Source of the DNA: an uncultured Pseudobdellovibrionaceae bacterium
GTDB lineage: Bacteria > Bdellovibrionota > FAC87 > UBA2466
Direction: 5' to 3'
Assembly: GCA_964611895.1 (NCBI GenBank)
Contig: CAZTDN010000019.1
Location: 577-64,576, forward strand
Length of the DNA: 64,000 bases
Positions 7,830-52,953 of this stretch are shown here, piece after piece; positions within the stretch are counted from its first letter, which is position 1, and each line of letters starts with the position of its first letter. The position numbers and the translations under genes are program-made. The notes beneath the pieces are model-generated. The model searched no databases. It was not told where the DNA came from and saw nothing but the letters and a program-made list of their open reading frames with translations.

Positions 7830-7879
7830 CAGTCCTGGCAGAAAGCGCTTTATTTGCGGAGCGGGGTGCCTGGTATTGC

Positions 7880-7895
7880 TGGCATCGACGTTGCA
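7880..7895 (+). promoter_or_regulatory. sigma-54 (-24/-12) promoter TGGCAT-N5-TTGCA
   Basis: ctGGcatcgacgttGCa has GG at 7881-82 and GC at 7893-94 (exact GG-N10-GC). It sits 50 nt after the sigma-54 activator stop and ~42 nt upstream of ATG 7938. Confidence 0.5.
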
Positions 7896-7937
7896 ATCGT
7901 TTTGTGTACCCAAAGTGGGCAAGAGGAGATTTCGAGT

Positions 7938-8741: not shown

Positions 8742-8792
8742 TCCTAAATCGGTCCTAACACGAAACGAACAGTCGAGTGCGACAATGGGAGC

Positions 8793-14814: not shown

Positions 14815-15849
14815 TTGAAACCAGCCATGATGAGTCGTCTGCCCGAGCTCATTGAGCTGGAGCGCCTTCTCGATGAAATAGGCAACCGATCACGCGTAAA
14901 GGTATTAGGTCAGATTCATCACCAGGAACTTTCTTTTCCGCTCTATTCGGTCGCCATCGGGTCGAGCGATCCGGCCGCACCGACATTGGGCCTGTTTGGT
15001 GGAGTGCATGGACTAGAGCGGATCGGTACTCAAGTCCTTTTGTCGTATCTGCGCACGGTTTCCGAGTTAATGCGTTGGGACCATGCGATCGCCGCATTGC
15101 TAGAAAGATCCAAGCTCGTTTTTTTCCCCTTGGTAAATCCTGGCGGGATGTATTTGCTCTCGCGCGCCAATCCCAATGGGGTGGATCTCATGCGAAATGC
15201 GCCAGTCCACGCGGATAAAATGCCCGCCATGGCATTGTTCGGTGGGCATCGCATTTCTCCCAAGCTCCCTTGGTATCGAGGGCCCGCTGGAGCCCCCATG
15301 GAAGCCGAGGCCGTTGCAATCTGTGAACTTGTGCGGCAGGAGCTATTTCCCTCAAAAGTGTCCATAGCACTTGATGTGCACTCCGGTTTTGGAACCCGGG
15401 ATCGAGTGTGGTTTCCGTATGCTCGCACTCGAAAGCCATTTCCACATGTCACCGAGGTATTTTCGCTCAAGCAGATGTTGGACCGGACCTACCCTAATCA
15501 TGTCTACATAGTGGAACCTCAGTCTAAGCAGTACATGACTCACGGAGATATTTGGGACTATCTCTACGATGAGCAGCGTAAAAACGAAAATAATGGTTTC
15601 TTTCTCCCGCTGACCTTGGAAATGGGTTCGTGGGTTTGGGCTAAAAAGGACCTGCGGCAGATTTTTTCGGTGCTGGGAGCATTCAATCCTATGAAGCCAC
15701 ACCGGTTGCAACGCACGCTCCGAAGGCATTTGTTGTTTTTGGATTTTTTGCACCGCGCGGTTTTGTCGCCTCAAGAATGGGTTTCCCAGGCAAAAGAAAA
15801 AAAAGATCCTCTTCGTCGACGCGCGCTAGAGCTTTGGTATACACCGTAG
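14815..15849 (+). CDS. M14-family zinc carboxypeptidase-like protein (succinylglutamate desuccinylase/aspartoacylase-like, DUF2817-like)
   Basis: GGVHGLERIG (HxxE zinc ligands), LVNPGG, ALDVHSG (third His ligand) arranged as in M14/AstE-AspA enzymes. Confidence 0.5.
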   Translation: MKPAMMSRLPELIELERLLDEIGNRSRVKVLGQIHHQELSFPLYSVAIGSSDPAAPTLGLFGGVHGLERIGTQVLLSYLRTVSELMRWDHAIAALLERSKLVFFPLVNPGGMYLLSRANPNGVDLMRNAPVHADKMPAMALFGGHRISPKLPWYRGPAGAPMEAEAVAICELVRQELFPSKVSIALDVHSGFGTRDRVWFPYARTRKPFPHVTEVFSLKQMLDRTYPNHVYIVEPQSKQYMTHGDIWDYLYDEQRKNENNGFFLPLTLEMGSWVWAKKDLRQIFSVLGAFNPMKPHRLQRTLRRHLLFLDFLHRAVLSPQEWVSQAKEKKDPLRRRALELWYTP

Positions 15850-15855
15850 TGAACC

Positions 15856-16647
15856 ATGAAAAACCAGTCCACAAATTGGGTGTTTCTGCGCGGCCTATCT
15901 CGCGAAGCCGCCCATTGGGCAGAATTTCCCCGACTCTTTGAGGAAAAGTTCCCCGGGGCCAAGGCGATGGCAATAGATTTGCCAGGAAATGGCGAGTTTC
16001 ACGCGCAGAACACGCCCACTTCTTTGATTGGGATTGTGGAGCATGTCCGCGAAACCTGGTCAAAACGCAATCCCACTCCTGGCTCTCCGGTGCATTTGTT
16101 CGGAATGTCGCTGGGGGCCATGGTGAGTTTGCAGTGGATGCAACGTTATCCCGGCGAAATCGCATCAAGCGTCTTGATCAACACCAGCCTGCGGGGGTTC
16201 AGTCCTTTTTATGAAAGGATGTCTCCCAGCGCCTATGGTCTCCTTTTGCGTGTTTTTATCGAGTCAGATACCCGATCCAGGGAAGAGCTGATTTTGCGGT
16301 TGACCAGTCAGAAAAAAGACTGGGACGAGAATGAGCTCCGACAACGGGTAAAGATCCAAGAAAAGCATCCCGTGAGCAAGTGGAACGCAATTCGTCAGAT
16401 TGGAGCGGCGCTTTCTACTGTCGATTCAAACCAGCGCCCACCGCAACCCGTGTTGATTTTAAACAGTTTGGGTGATTTGTTGGTGCATCCCAAATGCTCG
16501 CAGGCCATTGCAAAAGCTTGGAGCGCGCCGATTGAGCGGCATGCCTGGGCGGGGCACGACCTAGTCTTGGACGATCCCCAGTGGACGTTAGAATCGCTGG
16601 CAAAATGGTACGGATATTTAACTAACCAAAACTCAATAGACGAATAA
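15856..16647 (+). CDS. alpha/beta-fold hydrolase
   Basis: Nucleophile elbow GMSLGAM, plus C-terminal WAGHDL region containing a His consistent with a catalytic His. Confidence 0.65.
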   Translation: MKNQSTNWVFLRGLSREAAHWAEFPRLFEEKFPGAKAMAIDLPGNGEFHAQNTPTSLIGIVEHVRETWSKRNPTPGSPVHLFGMSLGAMVSLQWMQRYPGEIASSVLINTSLRGFSPFYERMSPSAYGLLLRVFIESDTRSREELILRLTSQKKDWDENELRQRVKIQEKHPVSKWNAIRQIGAALSTVDSNQRPPQPVLILNSLGDLLVHPKCSQAIAKAWSAPIERHAWAGHDLVLDDPQWTLESLAKWYGYLTNQNSIDE

Positions 16648-16671: not shown

Positions 16672-18291
16672 ATGGATTTCACCACGCGTCGGCAGTTCTT
16701 GGTCTATCTGGGGATGGGCACCTATTCTTTATTGCGTTCCAGTTCTGGAATGGCTTCGGCGGCATTCCCCTTGGCGCGATCGAAGGCGAGTAATGGTCGA
16801 TTTAAGCCCATTCCCTCTAGCGTAAGTGATGAATTGATTTTGGCTCCCGGGTTTCGTTTCGATCGCATTGCGTCGTACGGGGACTCCCTGGGAAGCTTCG
16901 GGCCCTTTGGGGCTGAGCATTTTGGTTATGACAACGATTTTACTGCGTACTTTCCGATCGACGCACTAAGCGGTGGAAAAAAATCCGACCATGGTTTGCT
17001 CTGGGTCAATCATGAGTTTGTTTCGCCCTTTTTCCTGCATGGGGTTGCGGGGAATGCAGCGCGATCAGTGGATCGAATTCGCCAAGAGCAGCTCGCAGTG
17101 GGAGGGTCTGTGCTCGAGGTAAAAAGGAAGAACGGGAAATGGTCTTCGGTTGTTGGGTCGAGCTTTGCGCGTCGGTTTACGGCGCTTTACCCGCGATTTC
17201 AGGTCACAGGGCCTGCCACCGGGAGATTGGGCGAGCTTTCTGGAACTCTTGCAAACTGTTCTGGGGGGCGGACATTTTGGAATACCGCGCTTTCTGGCGA
17301 AGAAAACTTTCAACTCTTCAACCCTGCTCAGTCCGATAGCCTTAACTGGGCGCAGCATTCCCAGACAAAGATCCAAGAAGAGCACTTTGGGTGGATTGTC
17401 GAAATCGATCCTTTTGGGGAGTTGCCGCCCAAAAAACACACTTCATTGGGAAGGTTCTGTCATGAAAATGCCTCCCTTCGTTTGGGTGAATCGGGGCGGC
17501 TCGCTGTTTATATGGGGGACGATTCGGCGGATCAGTATTTTTATAAATACCTAAGCCGAGAAAAGTATCTGCCTAGCGCCAGTCGAGCCGTTTCCAGTGC
17601 TCTATTGGAGAATGGTGTTTTGTACGTCGCTGATTTTCGAAAAGGGCAGTGGGTACCATTGGATTTGCAGGCAAACCCCGCGCTCAAATCGGCGGGTTTC
17701 AAGTCTCAAGCGGAGGTTTTATTACGAACACGCGACGCAGCCAAAGCTGTCGGCGCAACACCTTTAGATCGCCCTGAAGATTGTGAAGTGCACCCCCGCG
17801 ATGGGAGTGTCTATCTTTCATTGACCAATAATGCGGGGCATGGGGATTTCCACGGAAAAATAATCCGCCTGGTGGAAAAGGACGACAACGCGGAGTCGTT
17901 AGAGTTTCGGTACGAAATTTTTTTGGCGGGAGGACCTCAGTCAGGACTAAGCTGTCCTGATAATCTGGTTTTTGATTCCAAAGGCAATCTTTGGGTGACT
18001 TGCGATGTGCCGGGCTACGCCATCGGGAAGGGTGCCTACAGTCAAGTGGGGAACAACGGGATGTTCATGATCCCCACTTCGGGGCGTTCAATGGGGGACG
18101 CTTTCCAGTTCGCTTCGGGTCCGGTGGGGGCAGAGCTGACCGGGCCAGGGTTTAATGAAAGTCAGGACACTCTCTTTCTTTCGGTCCAGCATCCGGGGGA
18201 GGGCAGCACTGACAGAGCCCATCCTACCAGTCATTGGCCGAGGGGAAAGGATCTTCCCTTGCCTTCAGTGGTCGCGATTACGGGGTTCTAA
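16672..18291 (+). CDS. Tat-secreted PhoX-family (DUF839) phosphatase
   Basis: Twin-arginine signal TRRQFLVYLGMG, then FGPFGAEHFGYDNDFTAY...GLLWVNHEF and a beta-propeller-like C-half, as in PhoX alkaline phosphatases. Sits directly upstream of pstS. Confidence 0.6.
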   Translation: MDFTTRRQFLVYLGMGTYSLLRSSSGMASAAFPLARSKASNGRFKPIPSSVSDELILAPGFRFDRIASYGDSLGSFGPFGAEHFGYDNDFTAYFPIDALSGGKKSDHGLLWVNHEFVSPFFLHGVAGNAARSVDRIRQEQLAVGGSVLEVKRKNGKWSSVVGSSFARRFTALYPRFQVTGPATGRLGELSGTLANCSGGRTFWNTALSGEENFQLFNPAQSDSLNWAQHSQTKIQEEHFGWIVEIDPFGELPPKKHTSLGRFCHENASLRLGESGRLAVYMGDDSADQYFYKYLSREKYLPSASRAVSSALLENGVLYVADFRKGQWVPLDLQANPALKSAGFKSQAEVLLRTRDAAKAVGATPLDRPEDCEVHPRDGSVYLSLTNNAGHGDFHGKIIRLVEKDDNAESLEFRYEIFLAGGPQSGLSCPDNLVFDSKGNLWVTCDVPGYAIGKGAYSQVGNNGMFMIPTSGRSMGDAFQFASGPVGAELTGPGFNESQDTLFLSVQHPGEGSTDRAHPTSHWPRGKDLPLPSVVAITGF

Positions 18292-18352
18292 TCAAAATCT
18301 AACACGACAGGTAGTCCACATTGGGTTAAATCCCAGCACTCGGAGGACCGCT

Positions 18353-19348
18353 ATGCGTATTTTCTTTTGGTTGGGCTTGGTTTCTTTTCCGGCGATGGCG
18401 TCGGCGCTCATTAATGGGGCGGGGGCGAGCTTTCCTTTCCCACTTTACGCAAAATGGTTCTCGGATTACCAAAAACTCCATCCCGACGTGCAGATCAACT
18501 ACCAGTCGATCGGAAGTGGCGGGGGAATTCGCCAGTTCACTCAAAAAACCGTCGATTTTGGAGCAAGTGATGCTCCCATGACAGCCGAACAGATGGCCGA
18601 TGCGAAACAGCCCATCTTGCATATTCCGACGGTATTGGGCGCGGTGGTGCTCACTTATAATCTCCCCGGTTTTACTGGTCCCCTCCATCTTTCGGGCGAA
18701 GTGATTGCTGCCGTATTTCAAGGAAGCATTACCCGATGGAACGATCCCAAAATTCGAAACACCAACCCAAAGGCAAATCTACCGGACATGCCGATTTTGG
18801 TGGTCCACCGGGCAGATGGAAGTGGAACGACCGCAATATTTACGGATTACCTCTCTAAACAAAATGGAATATGGAAGGCAGGCAGTGGCACCGCTGTGAA
18901 ATGGCCCGTTGGGTTAGGTGGCAAAGGGAACGAAGGTGTTGCTGGGCTGGTGAAGCAGACTCCTGGCTCGCTCGGGTATGTGGAGCTGATCTACGCAAAA
19001 AATAATCAGCTCGAGTATGCATCTGTTCGCAACAAAGCCGGGAGTTGGGTGGTGCCGGATTTGGCTTCGGTGAGTGCCGCGGCAAGTGGTGTTGTGGTTC
19101 CTGAGGATTTTCGGGTGTCGATTACCGATCCTGCGGGAAAGAGTGCTTATCCCATCGCTGGGTTTACTTACCTGTTGGTGTGGAAGGACCAGGCTGATGT
19201 CGACAAGGGCAAGAAGCTGGTCGATTTTCTGGGGTGGGCTCTAAAAGACGGGCAAAAGGCAGCTGCATCGCTTCATTATGCTCCACTTCCTCAGGGATTG
19301 GTTGCGAAGATTCAAGCAAAAATTGCTACGATAGCTGTAAAAAAGTAA
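18353..19348 (+). CDS. pstS: phosphate ABC transporter substrate-binding protein
   Basis: GGAGGA RBS at 18343, signal peptide MRIFFWLGLVSFPAMASA, and INGAGASFPFPLYAKW...YQSIGSGGG PstS motifs. The ORF-track start 18155 overlaps phoX. Confidence 0.85.
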   Translation: MRIFFWLGLVSFPAMASALINGAGASFPFPLYAKWFSDYQKLHPDVQINYQSIGSGGGIRQFTQKTVDFGASDAPMTAEQMADAKQPILHIPTVLGAVVLTYNLPGFTGPLHLSGEVIAAVFQGSITRWNDPKIRNTNPKANLPDMPILVVHRADGSGTTAIFTDYLSKQNGIWKAGSGTAVKWPVGLGGKGNEGVAGLVKQTPGSLGYVELIYAKNNQLEYASVRNKAGSWVVPDLASVSAAASGVVVPEDFRVSITDPAGKSAYPIAGFTYLLVWKDQADVDKGKKLVDFLGWALKDGQKAAASLHYAPLPQGLVAKIQAKIATIAVKK

Positions 19349-19448
19349 GTTATTCCAATGTCTTAATTGTGCCTAGACGGTGCCTGGGAACCCTAATGCA
19401 TTCCTAACATTCCGCGGAAGGGAATTTAGGATAAAACCAGTGCGCACT

Positions 19449-20459
19449 ATGAAAGCTGGTACTCTCCAAAGCCCCGCGGCGACGCACCATAGCGGTTGGT
19501 CACTCCCACTTCCGAGTGCTCGCCGTTTTGCGGCCAATCCAGGTCGGCGGGATCGTCACTGGGGCGATCGCTTTTTTTTCTGGCTAATGACTCTTGCAGG
19601 AATGAGCGTTTTTGCTCTGCTTGTCTTGATCGGCGTTTATTTGGCAGTGACCGCCTTGCCCACCGTCGAACAATTCGGCTGGAGCTTTTTAATTCGCAAT
19701 AACTGGGATCCAGTAAACGGCGAATTCGGTGCGTTGGCTTTTGTTTATGGAACCATCGTCTCCTCTCTGGTGGGCATGGTTCTGGCGACTCCTCTCAGTG
19801 TCGGGATTGCCCTGTTTCTGAATGAGCTGGCCCCACGAGCAGTTTCTAAAACTGTGGGTTTCTTGGTCGAGATGCTCGCAGCGATTCCCAGCGTGGTCTA
19901 TGGATTGTGGGGAATTTTTGTTTTAGCTCCGTGGTTACGCACCGACGTCGAGCCGTTCTTGGGAAAATACTTTGGTTTTATTCCGCTGTTTCAAGGAGCG
20001 CCTTACGGAGTGGGCATGATTACCGCCGGTATTATACTGGCGATTATGGTAGTGCCCACCATTTCGTCGCTTTGCCGCGAAGTGTTTCGGGCAATCCCGC
20101 GCTCCAGTCGGGAGGCCGCACTGGCGTTGGGGGCTACTCGGTGGGAGACAATGAGCCTTGCTGTCTTGAAATCTTCCAAAACGGGGATTTTTGGCGCTGT
20201 GATTTTGGGGCTGGGCAGGGCTTTGGGTGAGACCATGGCGGTGACGATGGTCATTGGAAACCGCAATGATATTTCTTTTTCGCTTTTTGACCCAGCCCAA
20301 ACCATGGCCAGTGTCATCGCCAATGAATATGCCGAAGCGACGACTAACCTGCATGTCGCTGCGCTCGCGCAAATTGGACTGACTCTGTTTGCTGTTACTT
20401 TTGTGATAAACGGCATTGCTCGTGTTTTCATTTGGCGAGTAAAAGGCAAGTCGCGATGA
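19449..20459 (+). CDS. pstC: phosphate ABC transporter permease PstC
   Basis: RRDRHWGDRFFFWLMTLAG N-terminus typical of PstC, an EAA-like loop, six TM helices. Start chosen at the internal ATG. Confidence 0.85.
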   Translation: MKAGTLQSPAATHHSGWSLPLPSARRFAANPGRRDRHWGDRFFFWLMTLAGMSVFALLVLIGVYLAVTALPTVEQFGWSFLIRNNWDPVNGEFGALAFVYGTIVSSLVGMVLATPLSVGIALFLNELAPRAVSKTVGFLVEMLAAIPSVVYGLWGIFVLAPWLRTDVEPFLGKYFGFIPLFQGAPYGVGMITAGIILAIMVVPTISSLCREVFRAIPRSSREAALALGATRWETMSLAVLKSSKTGIFGAVILGLGRALGETMAVTMVIGNRNDISFSLFDPAQTMASVIANEYAEATTNLHVAALAQIGLTLFAVTFVINGIARVFIWRVKGKSR

Positions 20460-21331
20460 AGGCTGTCCAGCTACAAGAATACATGAATGAGAGCTATGCG
20501 AAACGTCGCTGGTTCGATCGTTTTATGCGCTTGGTCTTGGTGGGAGCAGCTGTCGTAGCTCTGGCCCCCTTATTTAGCGTCCTCGCTTATGTAGTGAGCA
20601 AAGGGGCTGCGGGACTGAGCTGGGATTTTTTCACGCAGCTTCCTAAACCTGTCGGCGAGGTCGGTGGCGGAATGGCCAATGCACTGGTGGGTACGTGCAT
20701 TTTAGTCGGGCTGGCCGCGCTGATTGGAATTCCCTGGGGAGTAGCAGCGGGAGTGTATCTTTCGGAGTATGGCCGCACTCGCGTTGCCGGAGTGGTGCGG
20801 TTTGGAACAGATATGTTGGCCAGCGTGCCTTCAATCGTTATTGGGCTTTTTGTGTCCGCGCTTTTGGTCATTCCCATGGGCGGTTTTTCTGCACTGGCTG
20901 GAGGGGTAGCGCTGGGGATTATTATGATCCCTACAGTCGCTCGAAGTACTGAAGAAATGCTGCGTTTGGTGCCAACACATATTCGTGAGGCGGGCCTTGC
21001 TTTGGGGTTGCCTCGGTGGAAAGTGATTTTGCGAATTGTCTTGCGAGGGTGTGTCAGCGCGATTACCACCGGCGTCATGCTTGCGATTGCGCGGGTGGCG
21101 GGGGAAACGGCACCACTCCTTTTGACAGTCTTGAATAACCGATTTTGGCACCAAGGCCTTTCACAACCTATCGCTTCTTTACCTGTGCAAATTTATAATT
21201 ACGCGGCCTCCCCATTTGAAGAGTGGCATGCTCAGGCCTGGTCAGGAGCTTTGGTCTTGGTTTTGCTTGTTTTCGCAATGAACATCAGCGCTCGTCTTTT
21301 TTTTAAGACTGATGCAGTAGGACGCGAATGA
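20456..21331 (+). CDS. pstA: phosphate ABC transporter permease PstA
   Basis: ATGA overlap with the pstC stop. TM profile and EAA-like motif ([13 protein letters not shown]). Conserved order pstSCAB. Confidence 0.85.
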
Positions 21332-22107
21332 TGGAAGAAAAATCTACGGTCGAGCCGATTTTAAAGGTCCGTTCTCTCAATGCTTGGTTTGGAGAGAGTC
21401 ATGCGTTGAAAGATATCTCTTTGGATATTCCGCCCAACGCAGTTACCGCGGTCATTGGGCCGTCGGGTTGTGGGAAGTCGACTTTTATTCGTTGTTTGAA
21501 TCGCTTGCACGAAGAGGTCCCGTCTGCCGGCGCCCAGGGTGAGGTCCTGCTGGGGGGGATGAACATCTATGGAGACGGGGTGGATCCCGTCGGTATTCGC
21601 CGCAAAATTGGGATGGTATTTCAAAAGCCCAATCCTTTTCCTTCGCTGAGTATTTTTGACAATGTCGTCGTCGGGTTGAGGTTGGCTGGAATTCGGCGGC
21701 GTACCGTATTGCGCGAGATCGTGGAAAGAAGCTTACGCCAGGCAGCGCTTTGGGATGAGGTCAAAGATAAACTCCATGCGCCTGGGACAAGTTTGTCCGG
21801 AGGACAACAGCAGCGACTTTGCATTGCGCGCGCTCTGGCGGTGGATCCCCCGGTCTTGTTGATGGATGAGCCAACGAGTGCGTTGGATCCCATTGCGACG
21901 GCAAAAATCGAAGAATTGATCCTAGATCTCAAGAAACAGGTTACGATAGTGATCGTGACGCACAACATGCAGCAAGCGGCGCGTATATCGGATCGGACTG
22001 CATTTTTTCTGATGGGAGAGCTGGTAGAGTTTGGGGAAACCTCTACGGTATTTACTGTGCCTAAGGAAGAACGCACAGAGCGTTACATCACCGGGAAGTT
22101 TGGATGA
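21328..22107 (+). CDS. pstB: phosphate ABC transporter ATP-binding protein PstB
   Basis: Walker [10 protein letters not shown], signature [15 protein letters not shown], Walker [12 protein letters not shown]. Confidence 0.9.
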
Positions 22108-22123: not shown

Positions 22124-22798
22124 ATGAACCAACGACACATTGATGCTGGGTTGAGTAGTTTAAACCAGAAACTCCTTACGATGGCGGGGTTTGTGGAACA
22201 GGCAGTTGAATGTGCAACAGATGCCTGGCGATTTCGCAATATCGCCAAAATTGCGGATGTGTATGCCATCGAGCAAAAGGTGAACAAGGCTCACCTGGAT
22301 GTCGATGCGGCCTGTGTTCAGCTCCTAGCCTTGCAGCAGCCGATGGCTGCCGATCTGCGTTTCATTGTTTCGTGCATCAAGATCAACAACGACCTCGAAC
22401 GTATGGTGGATTTGGCAGTAAACATTGCTAACAACACCGAGTTTTACCTTCAGAACCCGCCTGCCATTCACATTGAAGATCTGTCCCAGATGGCGGACGA
22501 GGTAAGGGTGATGGTGCGTGAAGTCTTGGACGCTTTTGTAAAAACCGATGAACGTTTGGCGCGGCGAGTGCTCAGTCGAGACGATCGGGTCGACGCCTAT
22601 AAACGGAAAATAGTTCAGGATTGCCTGGATGAAATGAAAAAAGACACCAGGGTTACCGAGCAAGGGATGAACCTGATATTTATCGCTAAAAACCTAGAAC
22701 GCATCGGCGATCACGCTACGAACATTTCCGAAGATGTTATTTTCAGTGCTTCTGGTCAGGATATTCGCCATGCCACTGATCAGAAGCCTACCAAGTAA
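22124..22798 (+). CDS. phoU: phosphate signalling complex protein PhoU
   Basis: Two PhoU repeats (DLRFIVSCIKINNDLERMVD; NLIFIAKNLERIGDHATNI), ~224 aa. Confidence 0.85.
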   Translation: MNQRHIDAGLSSLNQKLLTMAGFVEQAVECATDAWRFRNIAKIADVYAIEQKVNKAHLDVDAACVQLLALQQPMAADLRFIVSCIKINNDLERMVDLAVNIANNTEFYLQNPPAIHIEDLSQMADEVRVMVREVLDAFVKTDERLARRVLSRDDRVDAYKRKIVQDCLDEMKKDTRVTEQGMNLIFIAKNLERIGDHATNISEDVIFSASGQDIRHATDQKPTK

Positions 22799-22815
22799 TT
22801 CCGTGTTGAAGAGGA

Positions 22816-23523
22816 GTGGAGATGGGCTCCCAAGTTCTCATTGTTGAAGACGAAAAAGACATCGCTGATTTGATGACCTTGCACCTAAAGCGAGAAGGGC
22901 ATCAAGTAGTGTCGGTCGACAATGGCGAAGAGGCCATACGACTCTTAACCTCATCCTTGTCCCCATCCAGCTCATTTGAGCTGTTGATTTTGGATTGGAT
23001 GTTGCCGGGTTTGTCGGGCCTAGAACTGATAAAAAAGATCCGGACAGAAAAAGGGGCTACGAACGTTCCCGTGTTGATGGTCACAGCGCGTGCGCATACT
23101 TCAGACATTGTTTTAGGGTTGGAAATGGGTGCGGATGATTACCTGACAAAACCCTTTGAGCTTCCAATATTTTTAGCTCGGGTCCGCGCGCTTCTGCGTC
23201 GGGGTAAGGCAGTAACGTCGGCCGAAGAGGTCACTACTTACTCTATGGGTGATCTGCACTTAGACCTCGCTGCGTATCAAGTCACTTGCGGCAAAAAAGA
23301 GCTCCAACTCACGCCAAGCGAGTTCAAACTTCTAGTGGCTTTGGCCAAGAGCCAAGGACGCGTACTCACCCGCGAGCGGCTGATTGACCTGGTGCAAGGA
23401 GAAGGAGTCACAGTCGTAGATCGGGCCATCGACACCCATATTTTTGGACTGAGAAAGAAATTGGGAAAGTGCGCCGACGTCGTCGAAACCATCCGGGGTG
23501 TAGGGTACCGGGTTCGAATTTGA
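22816..23523 (+). CDS. phoB: phosphate regulon response regulator PhoB (OmpR family)
   Basis: Receiver domain (VLIVEDEKDIADL...LILDWMLPGLSGLEL...KPF) plus OmpR-type winged helix (ETIRGVGYRV). Sits immediately after phoU. Confidence 0.85.
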   Translation: MEMGSQVLIVEDEKDIADLMTLHLKREGHQVVSVDNGEEAIRLLTSSLSPSSSFELLILDWMLPGLSGLELIKKIRTEKGATNVPVLMVTARAHTSDIVLGLEMGADDYLTKPFELPIFLARVRALLRRGKAVTSAEEVTTYSMGDLHLDLAAYQVTCGKKELQLTPSEFKLLVALAKSQGRVLTRERLIDLVQGEGVTVVDRAIDTHIFGLRKKLGKCADVVETIRGVGYRVRI

Positions 23524-23558
23524 GTGTGTTAAGATAGGGGCTCTTAACCTTTGTCAGG

Positions 23559-25253
23559 TTGCAGATGCTCCCGGTAGATACTCTAAGAAAAGTTACCCAA
23601 TGCATCGGAACCCTTTGTGGGGTGATTTTAATTTCTACCTGTGGTTCCTCGACTCAGTGCGAGACGATTTCTGGGACTCAGTGGGTCCCTTCGGTTCCGA
23701 GCGCCAGCGCGTCAAACCACAACTCCGGCATCACTGTCACTTCTTCCACGCAAACAAGTGCTGTCCCGATTATCGGAATGGGGCAGGCCGCCCCATCGAG
23801 TGTGGAAGTCAGTTTTACCATCGACATGACCCAAGACTTGGGGGCTCTGGGTTCGATCACTCTCGTGGCTAAGACGAAGGATTACCCCAGCTCCTTGAGC
23901 GGAGGAGCGTTTCCGATGCTCGTATCGCTGCACGACGGGACGAACGAATACATTAATTTGGCGCGGTCGGGCTCGGGAGGAGACTGTGCTCAGAGCGGCT
24001 ACTTTACCTGCAGCGGCGGCAGTTGTTCTGCCAACTCCGCTTGTACCATTAGCTACCCAAGCGCCTACGCCAGTCGAACACACTGGGAACAACATCAAGC
24101 ACCGAATGTATCAGCGGAGGATTCCCCAAGTACCAATACTTTTCCCACCTGTAATTGGTCCGGCGGGACGAATGGATCGGCAACCCGGCCTTCGTGTGCG
24201 TTTAACTCGACTTTTTTTCCGGGGGCGTATTCTCCAGCGCGTTTGCGTTATGGGGTTTCCTATACGGCAAAGTATGTCTTGGTGGCGGATTCTTATTCGA
24301 CCGTCACTTCCAAAACTGCATCCATCGAGCTGACCGTCTATAAACGCCAGACACCGGCGTCCGCTGCCGCCTCGGCAGGGGCCGTCGATCTCAATATTTT
24401 TCTTGTGGGTGATACCAATGTCCAGGCTTCGCGTACGGCTATCGGGCAGAGGAACCTGAACACACTCGTAAACTCCGTCGGGGATTATTACAATCAAGCG
24501 GGCGCAGAGGTGAAACTGGGGAGTGTGAATGCGGTAGAGTGGGCTTGCGCGACCGGGGGAGAGTCTTATTCCGCGCTCAACGTGAGTAGTTTAGGGACGA
24601 TGCTTAAGGACGGAAGCGCATTGGCTCCGAGTGGCACTGAAGGCAAGGCAGTGAATGTTTTTCTGGTGAGCACTATAACGGATGATACCGATTCCACCGC
24701 TTCGGGTTTTACTATCCTGGGATTCGATGGCGCAATCGGAGCTCCGCCCATTAATTCCACGGCGATCAGCGGGCTTACAGTAGCGACCTTTGATAATCTG
24801 GACAGCTTTAACCCAGCTTGTCCGAGCGAAGATTCTCTTTGTGCCGCGAACGAGCAAGACGCGGATTTCCAAGAGCTCGGTATCGTCGTAGGACATGAGA
24901 TTGGGCACTTTTTTGGTTTGAACCATTTGAGCGAATCGACCGGGGATTCGCACGACGGAATTACCGACACCCCAATCTGCCAGCTGCCGGGTGGTTACTC
25001 TTATATCTCACTCAATGTTTGCTTGAATCATGACACTTCCGTTTACCCGGAGACCGGACAGACATGTAATGCGTCTTGTTCTGGCTACAACTCCAGCACG
25101 GGGACGTTTTGTCCCACGAATGCCGCCTGTAGTTTTAATCACCTGATGTGGTGGACGACCAAGAATTTTCACGAGGCTTCGGGTGCCGGCGATGGCAATC
25201 TGATCACAGCAGATACCGGGGTGGTTCTAAATTACAGTCCTTTTGTTCAGTAA
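23559..25253 (+). CDS. secreted Cys-rich metzincin zinc metalloprotease, M43 (pappalysin/cytophagalysin)-like
   Basis: Signal peptide, Ser/Thr/Cys-rich body, and HEIGHFFGLNH (HExxHxxGxxH) followed by DGITDTP, as in M43 metzincins. Confidence 0.55.
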   Translation: MQMLPVDTLRKVTQCIGTLCGVILISTCGSSTQCETISGTQWVPSVPSASASNHNSGITVTSSTQTSAVPIIGMGQAAPSSVEVSFTIDMTQDLGALGSITLVAKTKDYPSSLSGGAFPMLVSLHDGTNEYINLARSGSGGDCAQSGYFTCSGGSCSANSACTISYPSAYASRTHWEQHQAPNVSAEDSPSTNTFPTCNWSGGTNGSATRPSCAFNSTFFPGAYSPARLRYGVSYTAKYVLVADSYSTVTSKTASIELTVYKRQTPASAAASAGAVDLNIFLVGDTNVQASRTAIGQRNLNTLVNSVGDYYNQAGAEVKLGSVNAVEWACATGGESYSALNVSSLGTMLKDGSALAPSGTEGKAVNVFLVSTITDDTDSTASGFTILGFDGAIGAPPINSTAISGLTVATFDNLDSFNPACPSEDSLCAANEQDADFQELGIVVGHEIGHFFGLNHLSESTGDSHDGITDTPICQLPGGYSYISLNVCLNHDTSVYPETGQTCNASCSGYNSSTGTFCPTNAACSFNHLMWWTTKNFHEASGAGDGNLITADTGVVLNYSPFVQ

Positions 25254-25256
25254 GAG

Positions 25257-25835
25257 GTGTGTATGTTTCACAAGATTTTGGGGGTGTTGGCTTTGTGTGG
25301 CCTGGGTGCCTATGCAGATAGTGCCCCATTGAAAGCTAGGCTGGAAGAGGCCTTGCGTCAGCGAAATGTTCCTCGATCGGCACAGTGGTGGACCGAGCAG
25401 GGGGCTGAAGTTCCCGGGCTCTTGGTACAGATTTATCAGGAGAACAAAGGAATTCGCTCCCGTATTTCTGCGATAGAAGCATTGAGGTTTTTTTCAGATG
25501 CAGACACGGCTGTGTTCTTAAAAAAAGAAGCATTGGGTGCGAGCAACTTGTCGGTGAGGCGCTTGGCATTGCGTTCGATAGCGCTTTCGCAAGGGCTGAA
25601 AGAAAAAGCTTTTTTCCAAGAGGTTTTCAAAGATCCCAATCCACAGATTCGTTGCGCTGCCGCGGAAGCATTAATCCAGCTAAAAACAGAAGAGGCGAAC
25701 GCTCTGGTAACTGAATACCTCGCAAACGAAACAGTGCCCTGGATTCATACGCGTCTTGACCCTCCCAAAAGACGCGGGTTGCATCGACAAGCAGTCCGAC
25801 GAGCGACTCCGCCAGGGTTAGATCCACGCATGTAA
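25257..25835 (+). CDS. periplasmic HEAT-repeat (PBS-lyase-like) protein
   Basis: Signal peptide MCMFHKILGVLALCGLGAYA, then several ~30-aa repeats (IRSRISAIEALRFF..., VRRLALRSIALSQ..., DPNPQIRCAAAEALIQL) typical of HEAT/PBS-lyase repeats. Confidence 0.5.
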   Translation: MCMFHKILGVLALCGLGAYADSAPLKARLEEALRQRNVPRSAQWWTEQGAEVPGLLVQIYQENKGIRSRISAIEALRFFSDADTAVFLKKEALGASNLSVRRLALRSIALSQGLKEKAFFQEVFKDPNPQIRCAAAEALIQLKTEEANALVTEYLANETVPWIHTRLDPPKRRGLHRQAVRRATPPGLDPRM

Positions 25836-25878
25836 AGGGTATGACAGGCCTTTGCCCTTGGGGTAGTGTTTAGGTCCG

Positions 25879-27654
25879 ATGGCAGCCGGAACGGTAGCAA
25901 AACTTTTTCCCTGGCGTATTTTTTATCGAGTAGCGCTAGTTCAGTCTCTGCTTATTCTACTGGCTCTAGCGTCATCGGGTCTGGTGGCTCGGCAGTTGCT
26001 AAAACGCCAGTTTGTCCTCGAAATCCAAAGTCGAGTAAATGATGTCTTGTCTCTTGTCCTGCAGAGAGTCCCCGCTTCTCCCAATGCAGATTGGTGCAAA
26101 ACCCAATCCCTACCCAGCTCAATTCGCCTGACCTTGATCCGAAAGGATGGCTCGACGGTTTGTGATTCTAAGTCAGAGCCTCAATCTTTGGGCAACTTGT
26201 CCGATAGGGAAGATTTTCAAGCCGCCCTCAAAACCGCACAGATTGCTTTTGATCGATCTCCTGGTTTGTTGTCGGGGGCGCTTTTGCATCCAGCGAGTGG
26301 GGCGGTTCTACGCGCGGAAATTTCGCTTCTAGAACTGGAGCAAACCCTGCGCGTGTTTGATACGAGCTTTGGAATCGCACTGGCGGTAGTGGCGTCCATT
26401 CTGGGTGGTTTGGCGATTTGGCTTGCAAGGCGTTTGGTGTTCCCTCTGGGGCGTTTGATTCTCAAAACGCAGCGACTTGTCTCTCAACAGCCGGAGATGG
26501 TCTCTCGTGATGATCTGACCAAAGAAGTTTTTGATGAGTGGGCAGACTTGGAGTCCAACATCGATCGCCTCAAGCGAGATCTCGCTGCTAAAACGCAAAG
26601 TCTGTCCATGGAGCAGTTGGAGCTGGACACGATCATGGGCGCTATTTCTGACGCTATTTTGGCGGTGGACCCTGAGGGCAATCTGCTTTTTTATAACAGT
26701 CGTTTTGAAGTGCTTTTTGGTAGTGACGCCTTGCGGAGCCGGAACCTCAAACTGTGGGGGATTTTTCGGGAGCCGGATATCTTGAGCACCTTTGAAGCCG
26801 CGCTAAAACAGGGGAGGGCCGGTGGAACCAAAGCTATCTCCCTAGAACAAAACCAGGGGCCCCGTCGTTTTTTTGCGCTATCGGTGTCACCACTCCGAAA
26901 ACAAGATGGCGCAATCTATGGCGCGCTGGGAATTTTTCACGATGTCACTGAACTAAAGTCAGCAGAACAAATGCGCATTGATTTTGTGGCAAATGTGTCG
27001 CACGAGCTGCGCACTCCGCTCACGGTGATCAAAGGGTACGCAGATACGCTCCTGTTGGATTTCAAAGATAAAAACTCTGATGCACTCGAGTTTTTGAACA
27101 GTATCGCCCGCAATAGCGATCGGCTCATGAATTTAATGAACGACCTGCTGGATCTTTCGTCCTTGGAATCTGACAGCATTATCCAGAAAGACGCTATCAG
27201 TACGGAAGAGATTACCCAGCGAATCGTCAAGCAGTTGCAGGGCGCCTTTGATGCAAAGCAGCAACACATCGAAACCACGTTTGAGGCAAAGACTGTGGTG
27301 GCTGACGCCCAGCGACTAGAGCAGGTTTTGGTCAATTTGTTGAGCAATGCGAATAAATACACTCCGTCCGGTGGCGAGATCCGAGTGAACTGGTTGCCCA
27401 GTGGTAGAGACACATTGCTGCAGGTGGCCGACTCGGGTCCCGGAATTCCGGTGGAGCATCACGGCCGATTGTTCGAGCGGTTTTACCGAGTAGACAAGGC
27501 GCGTTCGCGAGAGCAGGGTGGCACAGGATTGGGGCTCGCGATTGTGAAGCACATTATGCAAAGGCATGAGGGAGCGGTTTGGGTGGAAAGCACTCCGGGC
27601 GCGGGAAGCGCGTTCTTCTGTCGTTTTCCCAAAAGAGAAGTTGAAAAAGTATAG
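25879..27654 (+). CDS. phoR: phosphate regulon sensor histidine kinase PhoR-like (TM, HAMP, PAS, HisKA, HATPase)
   Basis: H-box SHELRTPLT, N-box LLSNANKYT, G-boxes DSGPGIP and GGTGLGLAIV. A PAS-like segment precedes HisKA. Confidence 0.8.
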   Translation: MAAGTVAKLFPWRIFYRVALVQSLLILLALASSGLVARQLLKRQFVLEIQSRVNDVLSLVLQRVPASPNADWCKTQSLPSSIRLTLIRKDGSTVCDSKSEPQSLGNLSDREDFQAALKTAQIAFDRSPGLLSGALLHPASGAVLRAEISLLELEQTLRVFDTSFGIALAVVASILGGLAIWLARRLVFPLGRLILKTQRLVSQQPEMVSRDDLTKEVFDEWADLESNIDRLKRDLAAKTQSLSMEQLELDTIMGAISDAILAVDPEGNLLFYNSRFEVLFGSDALRSRNLKLWGIFREPDILSTFEAALKQGRAGGTKAISLEQNQGPRRFFALSVSPLRKQDGAIYGALGIFHDVTELKSAEQMRIDFVANVSHELRTPLTVIKGYADTLLLDFKDKNSDALEFLNSIARNSDRLMNLMNDLLDLSSLESDSIIQKDAISTEEITQRIVKQLQGAFDAKQQHIETTFEAKTVVADAQRLEQVLVNLLSNANKYTPSGGEIRVNWLPSGRDTLLQVADSGPGIPVEHHGRLFERFYRVDKARSREQGGTGLGLAIVKHIMQRHEGAVWVESTPGAGSAFFCRFPKREVEKV

Positions 27655-27705: not shown

Positions 27706-28854
27706 ATGGTCAGCTTTCAGCTTACGGAAGAACAAGAATCCTTAAAACAGATGGTGGCCAAGTTTGTACAAAACGAGGTGATTCCCGTTTGTGCAAAGTA
27801 TGATGAGAGTGGGGAGTTCCCTACCGACGTGATCAAAAAAGCCTGGGAACTGGGCATTATGAACATCACGGTGCCCCAAAAGCATGGCGGCATGGGCCTA
27901 GGAGTTTTGGACGACGTTATCATCAACGAAGAAATGGGCGCGGGTTGTCTCGGGATTACGACGAGCATCGCGGTAAATACATTGGCCTTGTACCCCATCC
28001 TTTTGTTCGGTACCGACGATCAAATCAAAGAATTTATCACCCCCTTTCTCGAAGCTCCTCTGCTGGCTTCGTTTTGTCTCACGGAGCCGGGTGCGGGCTC
28101 GGATGCCGGGTCCTTATCCACAACAGCTCGCGACGAGGGGAGTCATTATGTGATCAATGGTTCCAAGATGTGGATCACGAATGCTGGGCACGCCTCGCTC
28201 TTTTCTGTGTTTTGCACCGTCGACAAGGGCTTGAAGCAAAAAGGAATCATTTGTCTCGCGGTACCAGCGAACACTCCCGGTATCCATTTGGGTAAGGCGG
28301 AGAACAAGCTCGGGCAACGCGCTTCGGATACGCGTGCGATCACTTTCGAAAATGTGAAAGTGCCCAAGAAAAATCTGATTGGAAAGGTCGGTGAAGGATT
28401 CAAGGTTGCGCTGCGGACGTTGGATCGGACACGCCCACCTATCGCCGCGGGCGCTGTGGGAGCAGCTCGTGCCGCTTTGCACCATTCGATCCGTTACGCC
28501 AAAGAGCGCAAGCAGTTCAATCAGCCCATTGCAAACTTCCAGGCAATTCAGTTCATGCTCGCAGACATGGCCACTAAAGTCGAAGCAGGCCGTGCGCTCT
28601 GTTACCGGGCTTCCTCCTTACTGGATGCGGGGCGAGAAGAAGAAGCAAACCTAGCTTCTTCGCATGCAAAACGTTTTTCAGCAGACATGGCCATGGAGGT
28701 TGCCACCGATGCCGTTCAGATTTTTGGTGGGTATGGCTACACTAAAGAGTATCCGGTCGAAAAAATCATGCGCGACGTTAAGCTCGTGCAGATTTACGAA
28801 GGGACCTCGCAAATTCAGCGTGTGGTGATAGCGCGGCATCTTTTGAAGGATTAG
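27706..28854 (+). CDS. acyl-CoA dehydrogenase (short/medium-chain type)
   Basis: FCLTEPGAGSDAG, YKMWITNAG-like GSKMWITNAG, C-terminal IYEGTSQIQRVVIARHLL. 382 aa. Confidence 0.85.
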   Translation: MVSFQLTEEQESLKQMVAKFVQNEVIPVCAKYDESGEFPTDVIKKAWELGIMNITVPQKHGGMGLGVLDDVIINEEMGAGCLGITTSIAVNTLALYPILLFGTDDQIKEFITPFLEAPLLASFCLTEPGAGSDAGSLSTTARDEGSHYVINGSKMWITNAGHASLFSVFCTVDKGLKQKGIICLAVPANTPGIHLGKAENKLGQRASDTRAITFENVKVPKKNLIGKVGEGFKVALRTLDRTRPPIAAGAVGAARAALHHSIRYAKERKQFNQPIANFQAIQFMLADMATKVEAGRALCYRASSLLDAGREEEANLASSHAKRFSADMAMEVATDAVQIFGGYGYTKEYPVEKIMRDVKLVQIYEGTSQIQRVVIARHLLKD

Positions 28855-28863
28855 GAGGCATTC

Positions 28864-29640
28864 ATGAATCTATTTGTGCTTTTGAAGCAAGTTCCCGATA
28901 CCGAGACCAAAATCCGAATCACGGGCGACGCCAACGGAATTGAGCAGTCGGATATTAAATGGATTTTGAATCCTTATGACGAATTCGCCATCGAAGAAGC
29001 CATCAAGACTCGGGAGAAGTTTAAAGAAGGCTCTGTCACTGTGGTAAGTGCCGGCCCCGATCGAGTGGTTGAGGCTTTGAGAACGGCTGTGGCCATGGGA
29101 GCGGATAACGCAATTCATGTTAAAACGGATGGTGTGGGAGACTCCTTCCTCATCGCTCGTGCCCTGGCAGAAGTTTGCAAGAAAGAAAACGCCAGCTTGG
29201 TGTTTACCGGAAAACAGGCCATTGACGACGATCAGGCCGCCCTTTTTGGGTACGTCGCTGAATTCCTCGATATGCCATCGGTTTCTGTTGTCGTGAAGCT
29301 CGATATTGCGGCTGACAAGAAATCTTTTCGAGCGGAGCGCGAGGTGGAAGGGGGGACCAAACATTTGATCGACGGTCCTTTGCCTGCGGTGATTGCAGTT
29401 AACAAGGGCATCAATAGCCCTCGTTACGCGAGTTTGCCTGGCATCATGAAGGCGAAGAAAAAAGAAATCAAAGCATACGCGTTAGCGGATCTGGGCTTGG
29501 GCTCTGAATCGCCTCGGACCAAAGATTTAGCCTATGCGTTGCCACCCGAACGAAAAGCAGGGATCAAGATCGCGGGCGATGCTGCGGCTCAGGCCAAAGA
29601 ACTCGTCCGTCTATTGCGGGAAGAAGCTAAAGTCATCTAA
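28864..29640 (+). CDS. etfB: electron transfer flavoprotein beta subunit
   Basis: MNLFVLLKQVPDTETKIRI...LNPYDEFAIEEAIK canonical EtfB N-terminus. Directly follows the acyl-CoA dehydrogenase. Confidence 0.85.
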   Translation: MNLFVLLKQVPDTETKIRITGDANGIEQSDIKWILNPYDEFAIEEAIKTREKFKEGSVTVVSAGPDRVVEALRTAVAMGADNAIHVKTDGVGDSFLIARALAEVCKKENASLVFTGKQAIDDDQAALFGYVAEFLDMPSVSVVVKLDIAADKKSFRAEREVEGGTKHLIDGPLPAVIAVNKGINSPRYASLPGIMKAKKKEIKAYALADLGLGSESPRTKDLAYALPPERKAGIKIAGDAAAQAKELVRLLREEAKVI

Positions 29641-29650
29641 GGAGAATCGC

Positions 29651-30619
29651 ATGGCAGCCGAAGTCGCTCTTATTGGAGAAGTAAAAGACGGACAGGTGAA
29701 ACGAGTTACCTATGAGATTTTAGGTGAATGCGTTCGCCAGGGGCTCGACCCTGTTGTGCTTTTAGTCGGAAACGGTCTGCCAGAGAGCGTGAAGGGGGAG
29801 TTAGGTCAGCATGGAGCCACTAAAGTCGTATTTCTTGAGCACGCCGATCTTGCTCAGTATTCGACCGAGGGCTATGCAAACGCGATCCATGCGTACCTAT
29901 CCGCTAAGCCTCCCGCGGCGGTGATTACCGGAGCGACGTCGCAGGGGAAAGACTTTTTACCAAGACTTGCCGCAAAGTTTGCCGTGGGCATGGCTGCTGA
30001 CTGCACCGAATTCAAAGTCGACGGCGCTGCTTTTTCGATTCGTCGACCGGTTTACGCGGGCAAGTGTTCCAAGGCAGTGCAGTTTTTGAAGGCCCCGGCC
30101 GTTTTCTCGGTTCGGCCCAATGTGTTGGCGGTTCAGTCCGCGGGAAAAACCGCCACCATCGAAAAAGCAGCTGCGAACCCAGGAAAAATTCGGGCCAAAA
30201 TCGCCGAAGTCAAAGCCTCAGCAGCCAAGAAAGTCGAGCTGACCGAAGCGGATGTGATTATTTCCGGTGGCCGTTCGTTGAAGAATTCAGACAACTTCAA
30301 AATCTTGTTTGAGTGTGCTGACACCATCGGCGCTGCGGTGGGAGCGAGCCGCGCCGCGGTGGACGCTGGGTATGCTTCGCACGATATGCAAGTGGGTCAG
30401 ACGGGGAAAACCGTCAGTCCGAAGCTTTATGTGGCGTGCGGAATTTCTGGGGCGATTCAGCATTTGGCAGGCATGCGCACTTCAAAAGTCATCGTAGCCA
30501 TCAATAAAGATCCCGAGGCGCCTATTTTTTCAAAAGCGGACTATGGGATTGTGGGTGATCTCTTCGAAGTGGTCCCTGCGCTCACCCAAGAGCTCAAAGC
30601 GCTTAAATCCAAGTCCTAA
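29651..30619 (+). CDS. etfA: electron transfer flavoprotein alpha subunit
   Basis: RBS GGAGAA then ATG 29651 (MAAEVALIGEV). FAD-binding C-terminal half ADVIISGGRSLKNSDNF...PKLYVACGISGAIQHLAGM. Confidence 0.85.
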   Translation: MAAEVALIGEVKDGQVKRVTYEILGECVRQGLDPVVLLVGNGLPESVKGELGQHGATKVVFLEHADLAQYSTEGYANAIHAYLSAKPPAAVITGATSQGKDFLPRLAAKFAVGMAADCTEFKVDGAAFSIRRPVYAGKCSKAVQFLKAPAVFSVRPNVLAVQSAGKTATIEKAAANPGKIRAKIAEVKASAAKKVELTEADVIISGGRSLKNSDNFKILFECADTIGAAVGASRAAVDAGYASHDMQVGQTGKTVSPKLYVACGISGAIQHLAGMRTSKVIVAINKDPEAPIFSKADYGIVGDLFEVVPALTQELKALKSKS

Positions 30620-52877: not shown

Positions 52878-52953
52878 GCGGGCGTAGCTCAGTTGGTAGA
52901 GCATCAGCTTCCCAAGCTGAGGGCCGAGGGTTCGAACCCCTTCGCCCGCTCCA
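52878..52953 (+). tRNA. tRNA-Gly (anticodon CCC), 76 nt with encoded CCA
   Basis: Hand-folded cloverleaf. Acceptor GCGGGCG/CGCCCGC, D-arm GCTC-AGTTGGTA-GAGC, anticodon stem TCAGC/GCTGA with loop TTCCCAA, T-arm GAGGG-TTCGAAC-CCCTT, discriminator T, CCA. Confidence 0.9.

Follow-up and report, generated by a model that had tools for sequence, protein, structure and literature searches.

The stretch of DNA considered here, referred to as the window, comprises 64,000 nt from an uncultured Pseudobdellovibrionaceae bacterium (GCA_964611895.1, contig CAZTDN010000019.1, positions 577-64,576, forward strand). On its + strand, pstSCAB-phoU-phoB is followed by a gene for a lipoprotein metzincin, a gene for a periplasmic HEAT-repeat protein, and then phoR, with all genes co-directional. 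The metzincin and HEAT genes, together termed the cassette, form a self-contained two-gene module that is conserved across Bdellovibrionota. Its position in the window is probably that of a clade-specific relocated module, kept by purifying selection and passively co-transcribed with phoBR, in which the HEAT protein acts on the protease. Below, L-numbers denote fetched loci and P-numbers denote database copies of proteins.

The OmpR-type response regulator gene (22816..23523, + strand, probable ATG at 22822) encodes Response_reg and Trans_reg_C domains. Its best match is the PhoB equivalog model TIGR02154, the top hit among 100 NCBIfam matches, although its score of 218.6 bits stays below the cut-off (296.2). 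The histidine kinase gene (25879..27654, + strand) encodes PAS, HisKA and HATPase_c domains, the H-box SHELRTPLT and two transmembrane (TM) segments. Its top two NCBIfam matches are also below their cut-offs (PnpS NF046044, 330.7 vs. 400 bits; phoR_proteo TIGR02966, 295.4 vs. 334.2 bits). Genomic context identifies the two genes as a PhoB/PhoR system: pstSCAB-phoU lies directly upstream, and the orthologous phoB and phoR genes in L040-L043 overlap or lie 54-57 nt apart. An initial annotation of this region had placed phoB after pstSCAB-phoU, and a PhoR-type kinase with PAS domain, two TM segments and the same H-box some 2.3 kb further on. Gene order and domains bear this out, with 2355 nt between the phoB stop and the phoR start.

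The intervening metzincin gene is an open reading frame (ORF) at 23559..25253 (+ strand; probable ATG at 23565), and the HEAT gene is an ORF at 25257..25835 (+ strand; probable ATG at 25263, with AAGAGGTG just upstream). These starts are fixed by the database copies of the two proteins, P0001 (562 aa) and P0121 (190 aa); the full ORFs would encode 564 and 192 aa. With the likely ATG starts, the gaps are ~41 nt between phoB and the metzincin gene, ~9 nt between the metzincin and HEAT genes, and ~43 nt between the HEAT gene and phoR. The arrangement of four co-directional genes with short gaps, as originally described, recurs in three further independent assemblies.

The metzincin lipoprotein

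The motif HEIGHFFGLNH occupies residues 446-456 of the metzincin, and a DTP motif follows at residues 470-472. Across 48 aligned homologues, H446, E447, H450, H456, D470, T471 and M530 are invariant, while G453 and Cys28 are at least 90% conserved. The extended zinc-binding motif of the metzincin clan, HExxHxxGxxH, is thus present, and the AlphaFold2 (AF2) model predicts a helix at residues 435-451. M530 lies in the conserved sequence C-x-F-N-H/Y-x-M-W-W, 74 residues past the third His, and is the putative Met-turn; the two residues are closer together in mirolysin (His234 to Met284). The metzincin site proposed in the initial annotation therefore stands, since the two residues whose absence had been named as evidence against it, the third His (H456) and the putative Met-turn Met, are both invariant in sequence.

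The AF2 model (predicted local distance difference test, 88.7; predicted template modelling score, 0.90) has a metzincin fold, with a beta-rich N-terminal domain (residues ~30-270) and an alpha/beta C-terminal domain. No family could be assigned to the N-terminal domain of ~240 aa, which precedes a Cys-rich catalytic domain (residues ~275-564). In a Foldseek search of the PDB, ADAM33, ADAMTS-5 and snake-venom metalloproteinases were the best matches to the C-terminal domain (E 1.6e-4, probability 1.0, target TM-score 0.5-0.58), and all 12 matches with E <= 0.001 were ADAM, ADAMTS or snake-venom metalloproteinase catalytic domains, with a probability of 1.0 each. In a profile search of the PDB, the region around the active site matched ADAM8, mirolysin and ulilysin (E ~1e-3). 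The Pfam M43 model PF05572 aligns to residues 439-473 with a sub-threshold score (16.5 bits vs. a cut-off of 23). Some homologues carry a precomputed PF05572 match, and several family members are named "M43 family zinc metalloprotease" by NCBI; the family thus appears to lie at the edge of this model. Reprolysin_5 scored 16.7 bits vs. a cut-off of 27, all Reprolysin Pfam models were sub-threshold, and distant relatives of the catalytic domain likewise score below the M43 and Reprolysin thresholds. The description "M43-like" is thus below threshold. ADAM8, mirolysin and ulilysin are the solved proteins nearest in sequence, and the metzincin belongs to no established family and lies between M43 and M12B.

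The window protein has a predicted lipoprotein signal that reads ...ILISTC28-GSS, which matches a relaxed lipobox pattern. Among the 48 homologues, 21 match the strict pattern [LVI][ASTVIGL][GAS]C, 17 match the relaxed pattern and 10 match neither; of these 10, two are truncated at the N-terminus, and some still have a hydrophobic stretch that closes in xGC. Most homologue N-termini have a hydrophobic stretch closing in [GAS]-C, and each member has 13-21 cysteines. The only Cys-Gly in the N-terminal region, C28-G29, contains the lipobox cysteine. While the protein was rightly described as carrying a signal peptide, these features predict that it is lipid-anchored rather than freely secreted. 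On the basis of its conserved active-site residues, it is presumably an active protease.

There are ~118 full-length homologues, with 34-70% identity, and all those with a source name are from Bdellovibrionota (Bdellovibrionia, Oligoflexia and Bacteriovoracia). An exhaustive profile search identified ~85 full-length representative clusters; past E ~1e-30, matches are to the catalytic domain only, in many architectures.

The HEAT-repeat partner

The product of the second cassette gene has a signal peptide ending in ...GAYA, followed by DS, and its residues 89-162 match HEAT_2 (PF13646) at 38.2 bits, above the cut-off of 27.7, in agreement with its original description. A HEAT gene lies directly 3' of the metzincin gene in 13 of 14 genome loci and in all six full-length metagenome loci, as well as in L015-L022, with a gap of a few nt or an overlap. 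The pairing recurs beside three distant relatives that share only the catalytic domain (L030, L032 and L037). While a word-based homologue search with the HEAT protein returned only the protein itself, a profile built from the ORFs downstream of metzincin genes in the fetched loci (28 partners) matched P0211/P0367 and P0229, all metzincins, at their N-termini (E 1e-15 to 1e-16). These proteins, from two distant lineages, are fusions of a signal peptide, a HEAT-partner domain and a metzincin domain with the motif HExGHWLGLFH; the window HEAT protein aligns directly to P0211 (BLASTP, 28% identity over 127 residues, E 3e-7). The domain order in the fusions is the reverse of the gene order in the cassette, so they are not read-through artefacts.

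Metzincin pro-domains are usually N-terminal to the catalytic domain, the same place that the HEAT domain occupies in the fusions. Given this domain order, the most likely target of the HEAT protein is the protease itself rather than PhoR, with a direct role as chaperone, latency factor or substrate adaptor. The HEAT protein evolves much faster than its partner, with 37-38% identity between the window and L001/L044, compared with 67-69% for the metzincin. Its conserved core reads ...RHPxDTxxWWRSLGPxAPxVI.... Searches of the literature on Bdellovibrionota metalloproteases and HEAT proteins found nothing relevant, and PADLOC defence-system models returned no meaningful match to either cassette protein or to the extra genes of L045 and L018 described below.

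The HEAT partner occurs in two sizes, a short form of ~190-215 aa in the window clade and a long form of ~320-360 aa. The long form, found in L004-L006, L008-L011, L014, L016, L023-L025 and L028, has a C-terminal extension of ~130 aa (...SSSEDRLNPE..GxWxGxW...) that matches no Pfam family.

Genomic contexts of the cassette

The cassette lies between phoB and phoR in four genomes only, those of the window, L001, L018 (for which L019 is a second contig, ending inside the metzincin gene) and L044. PhoR identity among these four insert-bearing genomes is 78.6-94.6%. The insertion, whose retention in relatives had been raised as a question, is thus kept in the four close genomes and is absent from sister genomes. 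In L042 (PhoR identity 72-74%), synteny is unchanged between the GNAT gene and the cytochromes, except that there is no insert and phoB and phoR are 54 nt apart. In L043 (PhoR identity 64%) the gap is 57 nt, and in L040 and L041 the two genes overlap by 4 nt. The L040 and L041 contigs also carry a cassette far from phoBR, at ~1.8 Mb (L040-L015) and ~0.19 Mb (L041-L016). Outside the clade, the neighbours of the cassette are unrelated to phosphate and include ileS (L015), sdh (L016) and fol genes (L020-L022), among others; in these contexts, 56-1000 nt of intergenic DNA precede the cassette.

L045 (PhoR identity 74-77%) has a different two-gene insert at the phoB-phoR junction (6291-9000), encoding a 331-aa protein without a family and a 302-aa protein with weak similarity to HNH endonucleases (E 0.013). 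The DNA on either side of this insert is rich in GTCATTGCGAGG/CCTCGCAATGAC inverted repeats similar to miniature inverted-repeat transposable elements or repetitive extragenic palindromic elements. The presence of a different insert at the same junction suggests that the phoB-phoR spacer is a recurrent insertion site. In L018 (8335-10700), an extra ORF for a 140-aa signal-peptide protein lies ahead of the metzincin gene, and within the metzincin gene itself a Tyr codon is replaced by an in-frame TAG (10471). The frame downstream of this stop is still conserved (FNYLMWW...), and the TAG may reflect a young pseudogene or a polymorphism.

Synonymous divergence (dS) between the window and L001/L044 is saturated, such that the ratio to nonsynonymous divergence (dN) is not computable; dN for the metzincin gene is 0.27-0.29. 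For the HEAT gene, dN/dS is 0.12 between L001 and L044. With saturated dS across the clade and low metzincin dN, the phoB-phoR arrangement is old and maintained. GC content and GC content at third codon positions (GC3) match the neighbouring genes, with GC3 of 0.57 and 0.48 for the cassette genes vs. 0.52-0.59. The simplest history is that the cassette moved once, at the base of a small clade, into a permissive spacer.

Transcription signals and a candidate Pho box

The phoB-metzincin junction (23524..23564, + strand), which is the left insert border, and the HEAT-phoR junction (25836..25878, + strand), which is the right border, were searched for transcription signals. RNA folding at the two junctions is no better than for shuffled sequence (z -0.82 and +0.48, respectively), a scan for promoter and terminator consensus sequences found nothing at either junction, with window totals below those of shuffled sequence, and Rfam identified no RNA family in the region. 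A weak terminator-like call at 23610, near the start of the metzincin gene, lies inside the region encoding the signal peptide. When phoR-proximal spacers were aligned across loci, they were too diverged for placing the insertion point. Since neither window junction has a significant hairpin, terminator or promoter-like site, a single phoB-metzincin-HEAT-phoR transcript is plausible.

A direct repeat with 11-bp periodicity and the consensus CCTAACGAATTTCTAACACGAC occurs upstream of pstS and pstC in all close relatives, and was used to build a position weight matrix (PWM) from 12 sites. In the window, candidate Pho box 1 (TCTAATCAAAATCTAACACGAC; 18287..18308, + strand) upstream of pstS scores 23.5 bits, and candidate Pho box 2 (CCTAATGCATTCCTAACATTCC; 19392..19413, + strand) upstream of pstC scores 24.9 bits, the window maximum. 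No other site in the 64-kb window exceeds 13 bits, the next best scoring 12.2 bits, and a pattern search for the candidate Pho box gave 5 matches vs. 0.84 expected. The PWM also recovers pst-proximal sites in two loci that were not used in building it, L040 (25.0 bits) and L041 (16.0 bits), which makes the direct repeat a credible Pho-box candidate for the phylum. Candidate Pho box 2 falls within the 5' extension of the mechanically called pstC ORF, which starts at GTG 19380. For this reason, pstC probably begins at ATG 19449 instead and encodes a protein of ~336 aa; the called length in relatives is 332-341 aa.

No Pho-box-like site precedes the cassette: the best PWM score between phoU and phoR (22700-25900) is 6.5 bits. 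With Pho-box-like sites at pstS and pstC and none at the cassette, any Pho control of the window cassette would be exerted via read-through rather than from a PhoB site of its own. Outside Pho loci, cassettes have no Pho-box-like site within 450 nt upstream by the PWM, and 16 of 17 upstream regions lack one. The exception is a 20.6-bit site at L021:8419-8440 (= L022:5726), which lies within an AT-rich stretch of ~1 kb, 582 nt upstream of the cassette, and may be a chance match. By eye, the start of the AT-rich stretch resembles what we take to be the 3' part of a minus-strand tRNA gene. General membership of the cassette in the Pho regulon was rejected on these grounds for 16 of the 17 non-Pho loci. 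A literature search on phoB and phoR in Bdellovibrio yielded nothing relevant.

The sensor domain of PhoR

The two TM segments of PhoR surround a periplasmic domain of ~125 aa (residues ~39-162). Identity in this domain is 52-58% among insert-bearing genomes vs. 35-38% to sister genomes, a sharper drop than in other regions of the protein. However, the periplasmic domain is the fastest-evolving region of PhoR in every comparison, so the drop is not specific. PhoR orthologues retain their architecture, including the periplasmic domain, where the cassette lies elsewhere or the junction is empty. Periplasmic input to PhoR is physically possible, and these comparisons lend no specific support to a PhoR modulator. 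Kinase accessory proteins are expected to be linked with their cognate kinase across genomes, whereas no locus outside one clade has the cassette linked to phoBR.

Origin and expression of the cassette

The gene contexts are best accounted for by relocation of the module from elsewhere in the genome into the short phoB-phoR spacer, at the 3' end of pstSCAB-phoU-phoBR. This would have happened in the common ancestor of the window genome, L001, L018 and L044, and the module would have been retained there under purifying selection. In the window the module has no long upstream region and is flanked by the gaps of 41 and 43 nt; given that these gaps contain no terminator, promoter-like signal or Pho-box-like signal, it would most likely share a transcript with phoB and phoR that reads through from the pst promoters, which bear the candidate Pho boxes. 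The cassette would then be phosphate-starvation-inducible by position. The initial annotation had proposed a single transcript under Pho control; the signal-free junctions are consistent with a shared transcript, but the cassette lacks a Pho-box-like site of its own. Starvation-induced extracellular proteolysis, also proposed, could apply only as a clade-specific effect of position, and the predicted lipid anchor argues against a freely secreted enzyme.

Several observations weigh against relocation followed by passive co-transcription. The donor site was not found, and no direct or inverted repeats that might represent insertion scars were detected at the cassette borders in the window. In L018, phoB is followed directly by a perfect 29-bp hairpin and UUUU (dG -44 kcal/mol, z -10.9); because this resembles a terminator, the cassette and phoR may be transcribed separately from phoB, at least in that genome. 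The in-frame TAG in the L018 metzincin gene hints that the cassette is dispensable there. The promoter scan used a sigma-70-like consensus, from which Bdellovibrionota promoters may differ, and the candidate Pho box is a prediction from conservation; co-transcription and Pho control are likewise read from sequence. The proposed interaction between protease and HEAT protein draws on gene linkage and fusions, and one readable full-length metzincin locus, L013 (7812-14368), has no detectable HEAT gene downstream.

The position of the cassette could instead be adaptive, with a starvation-induced surface protease selected at this site for scavenging, for example by degrading prey or environmental (phospho)proteins for PhoX and PstSCAB. 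The arrangement is kept in four lineages with saturated synonymous sites, it is clustered with PhoX and with a conserved array of M14 carboxypeptidase and alpha/beta hydrolase genes, and the window junctions are free of terminators. Nevertheless, cassettes outside the clade have no phosphate genes nearby, and 16 of the 17 upstream regions have no Pho-box-like site; moreover, the unrelated cargo in L045 and the extra cargo in L018 suggest that the junction is a permissive site, and the L018 copy has a premature TAG. An adaptive effector is thus possible, if on the unlikely side. An independent neighbour, transcribed from its own promoter without Pho control, with phoR expressed from an internal promoter and a neutral location, is also unlikely, and slightly more so. 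This explanation fits the L018 hairpin, the lack of a Pho-box-like site near the cassette, and the 56-1000 nt of upstream DNA with which the cassette behaves as its own unit elsewhere. In the window, though, a cassette promoter would have to fall inside the phoB coding sequence, since the ~41-nt upstream gap has no promoter-like site, and phoR, which is translationally coupled or closely linked to phoB in relatives, needs to be expressed.

A dedicated PhoR accessory, in which the protease, the HEAT protein or both modulate signalling via the periplasmic domain, would suit the sizeable periplasmic domain, the extracytoplasmic location of both intervening proteins, and the fall in periplasmic-domain identity between insert-bearing and sister genomes. 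However, this fall is not specific, PhoR architecture does not depend on the presence of the cassette at the junction, the fusions join HEAT to protease rather than to a kinase, and most genomes, two of them with both loci on one contig, carry the cassette apart from phoBR. Such an accessory role is improbable. The periplasmic PhoR modulator suggested by the initial annotation is therefore unlikely, since the cassette is autonomous and in most genomes distant from phoBR; nor does the cassette form a functional unit with phoBR, being phylum-wide and located in unrelated contexts elsewhere. A related scenario, to which we also give little credence, is that in this clade the captured metzincin, co-produced with PhoR and guided or restrained by the HEAT protein, processes the PhoR periplasmic domain or a Pst or PhoX component and so tunes the Pho response; we know of no proteolytic input of this kind for PhoR. 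Lastly, the window and all its relatives come from metagenome-derived assemblies, which raises the question of a chimeric contig from assembly or binning. The same gene order is found in independent NCBI, ENA, JGI and Logan assemblies (window, L001, L018/L019 and L044), whose divergence is in line with that of the flanking genes, and composition is uniform across the region; an artefact is thus exceedingly improbable.

Neighbouring genes

The cassette sits in a longer unbroken + strand array that runs, according to ORFs and domain searches, from a GNAT/FeeM-like gene through PhoX, pst and phoBR to a multihaem cytochrome gene. Domain searches identified the GNAT/FeeM-like acyltransferase (13808-14710), an M14 carboxypeptidase (14815-15849) and an alpha/beta hydrolase (15856-16647), all on the + strand. 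The upstream member of the phosphate cluster is phoX (16672..18291, + strand), encoding alkaline phosphatase PhoX (Pfam PF05787, E 2e-99), whose position is unchanged in L001, L018, L042, L044 and L045. The gap between the hydrolase gene and phoX is 24 nt, and phoX has no Pho-box-like site of its own. The GNAT/FeeM-M14-hydrolase array followed by PhoX is kept upstream of pstS in relatives and is complete in L042; the L018 locus begins within the M14 gene, such that the GNAT gene is unreadable, and L043 has the array without PhoX.

The pstS gene (18353..19348, + strand; PBP_like_2, E 7.6e-41) starts at the Met preceding the signal peptide. The pstC, pstA and pstB genes (19449..22107, + strand) were identified as ORFs with orthologues in related loci (E 1e-116 to 1e-190), and phoU (22124..22798, + strand) scores 198.4 bits with TIGR02135, exceeding the cut-off of 130.25. 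Downstream of phoR, genes for acyl-CoA dehydrogenase, ETF-beta and ETF-alpha (27706-30619) precede an Na_H_antiport_3 gene, with the multihaem cytochrome gene beyond. In L042 and L045, phoR and the Na_H_antiport_3 gene are directly adjacent, while the same junction carries other cargo in L018 (a methyltransferase gene) and L044 (a gene for a DUF7932 protein). These differences make the phoR-distal junction variable as well. Across the window (1-64000), cumulative GC skew climbs nearly monotonically, and all the annotated genes (13.8-32.6 kb) are on the + strand; there is one tRNA gene in the window, at 52878-52950.

Significance

The split phoB/phoR pair is an unusual, local, lineage-specific variant of gene order rather than a new part of phosphate signalling. 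As the Pho-operon location is a lineage-specific rearrangement, it does not change the understanding of phosphate sensing. The analysis does define an uncharacterised, Bdellovibrionota-wide module, consisting of a lipoprotein metzincin with a novel N-terminal domain and an obligate HEAT partner. Support for the pairing comes from gene linkage in ~30 loci, from its recurrence in distant relatives and from two independent fusions, and to our knowledge the coupling of a helical-repeat protein to a metzincin has not been described previously. The four insert-bearing genomes, together with the empty and differently filled sister sites, represent a natural experiment on regulatory capture, and such genomes can reveal the outcome of placing a housekeeping envelope module between response regulator and kinase. 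The direct repeat provides a testable Pho-box candidate for the phylum.

Comparison with known systems

In structure, the C-terminal half of the modelled metzincin is matched best by adamalysin/ADAM metzincins of MEROPS family M12B (ADAM33, 1r55; ADAMTS-5, 3hy9; BaP1, 1nd1), with Foldseek E-values for the model of 1.6e-4 to 1e-3 over ~200 aligned residues and the target TM-scores given above. The two groups share the HExxHxxGxxH motif, an abundance of Cys and stabilisation by disulfides. However, sequence identity is only 12-16%, and the window protein has a lipoprotein anchor, an unrelated beta-rich N-terminal domain and a Met 74 residues beyond the third His. Adamalysins typically have Asp right after the third zinc-binding His (HExxHxxGxxHD); the window protein has Leu457 at this position, and the family consensus has Pro (HExGHYLGLNHPSE).

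The M43B pappalysins (ulilysin, mirolysin, leptolysin and cytophagalysin) provide the best sequence-level PDB matches, at the active site and the DTP motif (mirolysin, E 0.0014; ulilysin, E 0.0016). These matches span only ~40-70 residues, PF05572 is sub-threshold, and the window protein differs in its large N-terminal domain and its conserved HEAT partner. We know of no description of such a domain or of a HEAT partner for pappalysins. Pappalysins are metzincins with the extended zinc motif and a Met-turn, the latter being the conserved methionine downstream of the zinc motif throughout the clan; their N-terminal pro-segment is short, with a Cys-Gly cysteine switch, and an Asp is conserved at the base of the S1' pocket (PMC6949598).

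The cassette also resembles the potempin-KLIKK operons of Tannerella forsythia, where a protease gene adjoins the gene of a small extracytoplasmic partner and lipoprotein anchoring is involved (PMC9890683). Potempins are dedicated partners that control KLIKK peptidases and are encoded upstream of the peptidase genes (PMC9890683). In the potempin system the inhibitor is the lipoprotein and its gene is upstream, whereas in the cassette the partner is of the soluble type and encoded downstream, and the protease is the predicted lipoprotein. By analogy, potempin operons might serve as a model for the HEAT protein as a latency or protection factor.

In gene content and order, the locus is the same as canonical pstSCAB-phoU-phoBR operons up to phoB. 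It differs in the 2355 nt and two unrelated genes between phoB and phoR, in PhoB and PhoR scores below the equivalog cut-offs, and in the PhoR periplasmic domain of ~125 aa; the 11-bp-period direct repeat resembles the E. coli Pho box in architecture. Extracytoplasmic proteins are encoded within regulator-kinase operons in MtrAB-LpqB, CseABC and WalRK-YycHI, much as they are here. Accessory proteins of the LpqB, CseA and YycHI types typically co-occur with their kinase across genomes; unlike them, the window cassette does not track its neighbouring kinase.

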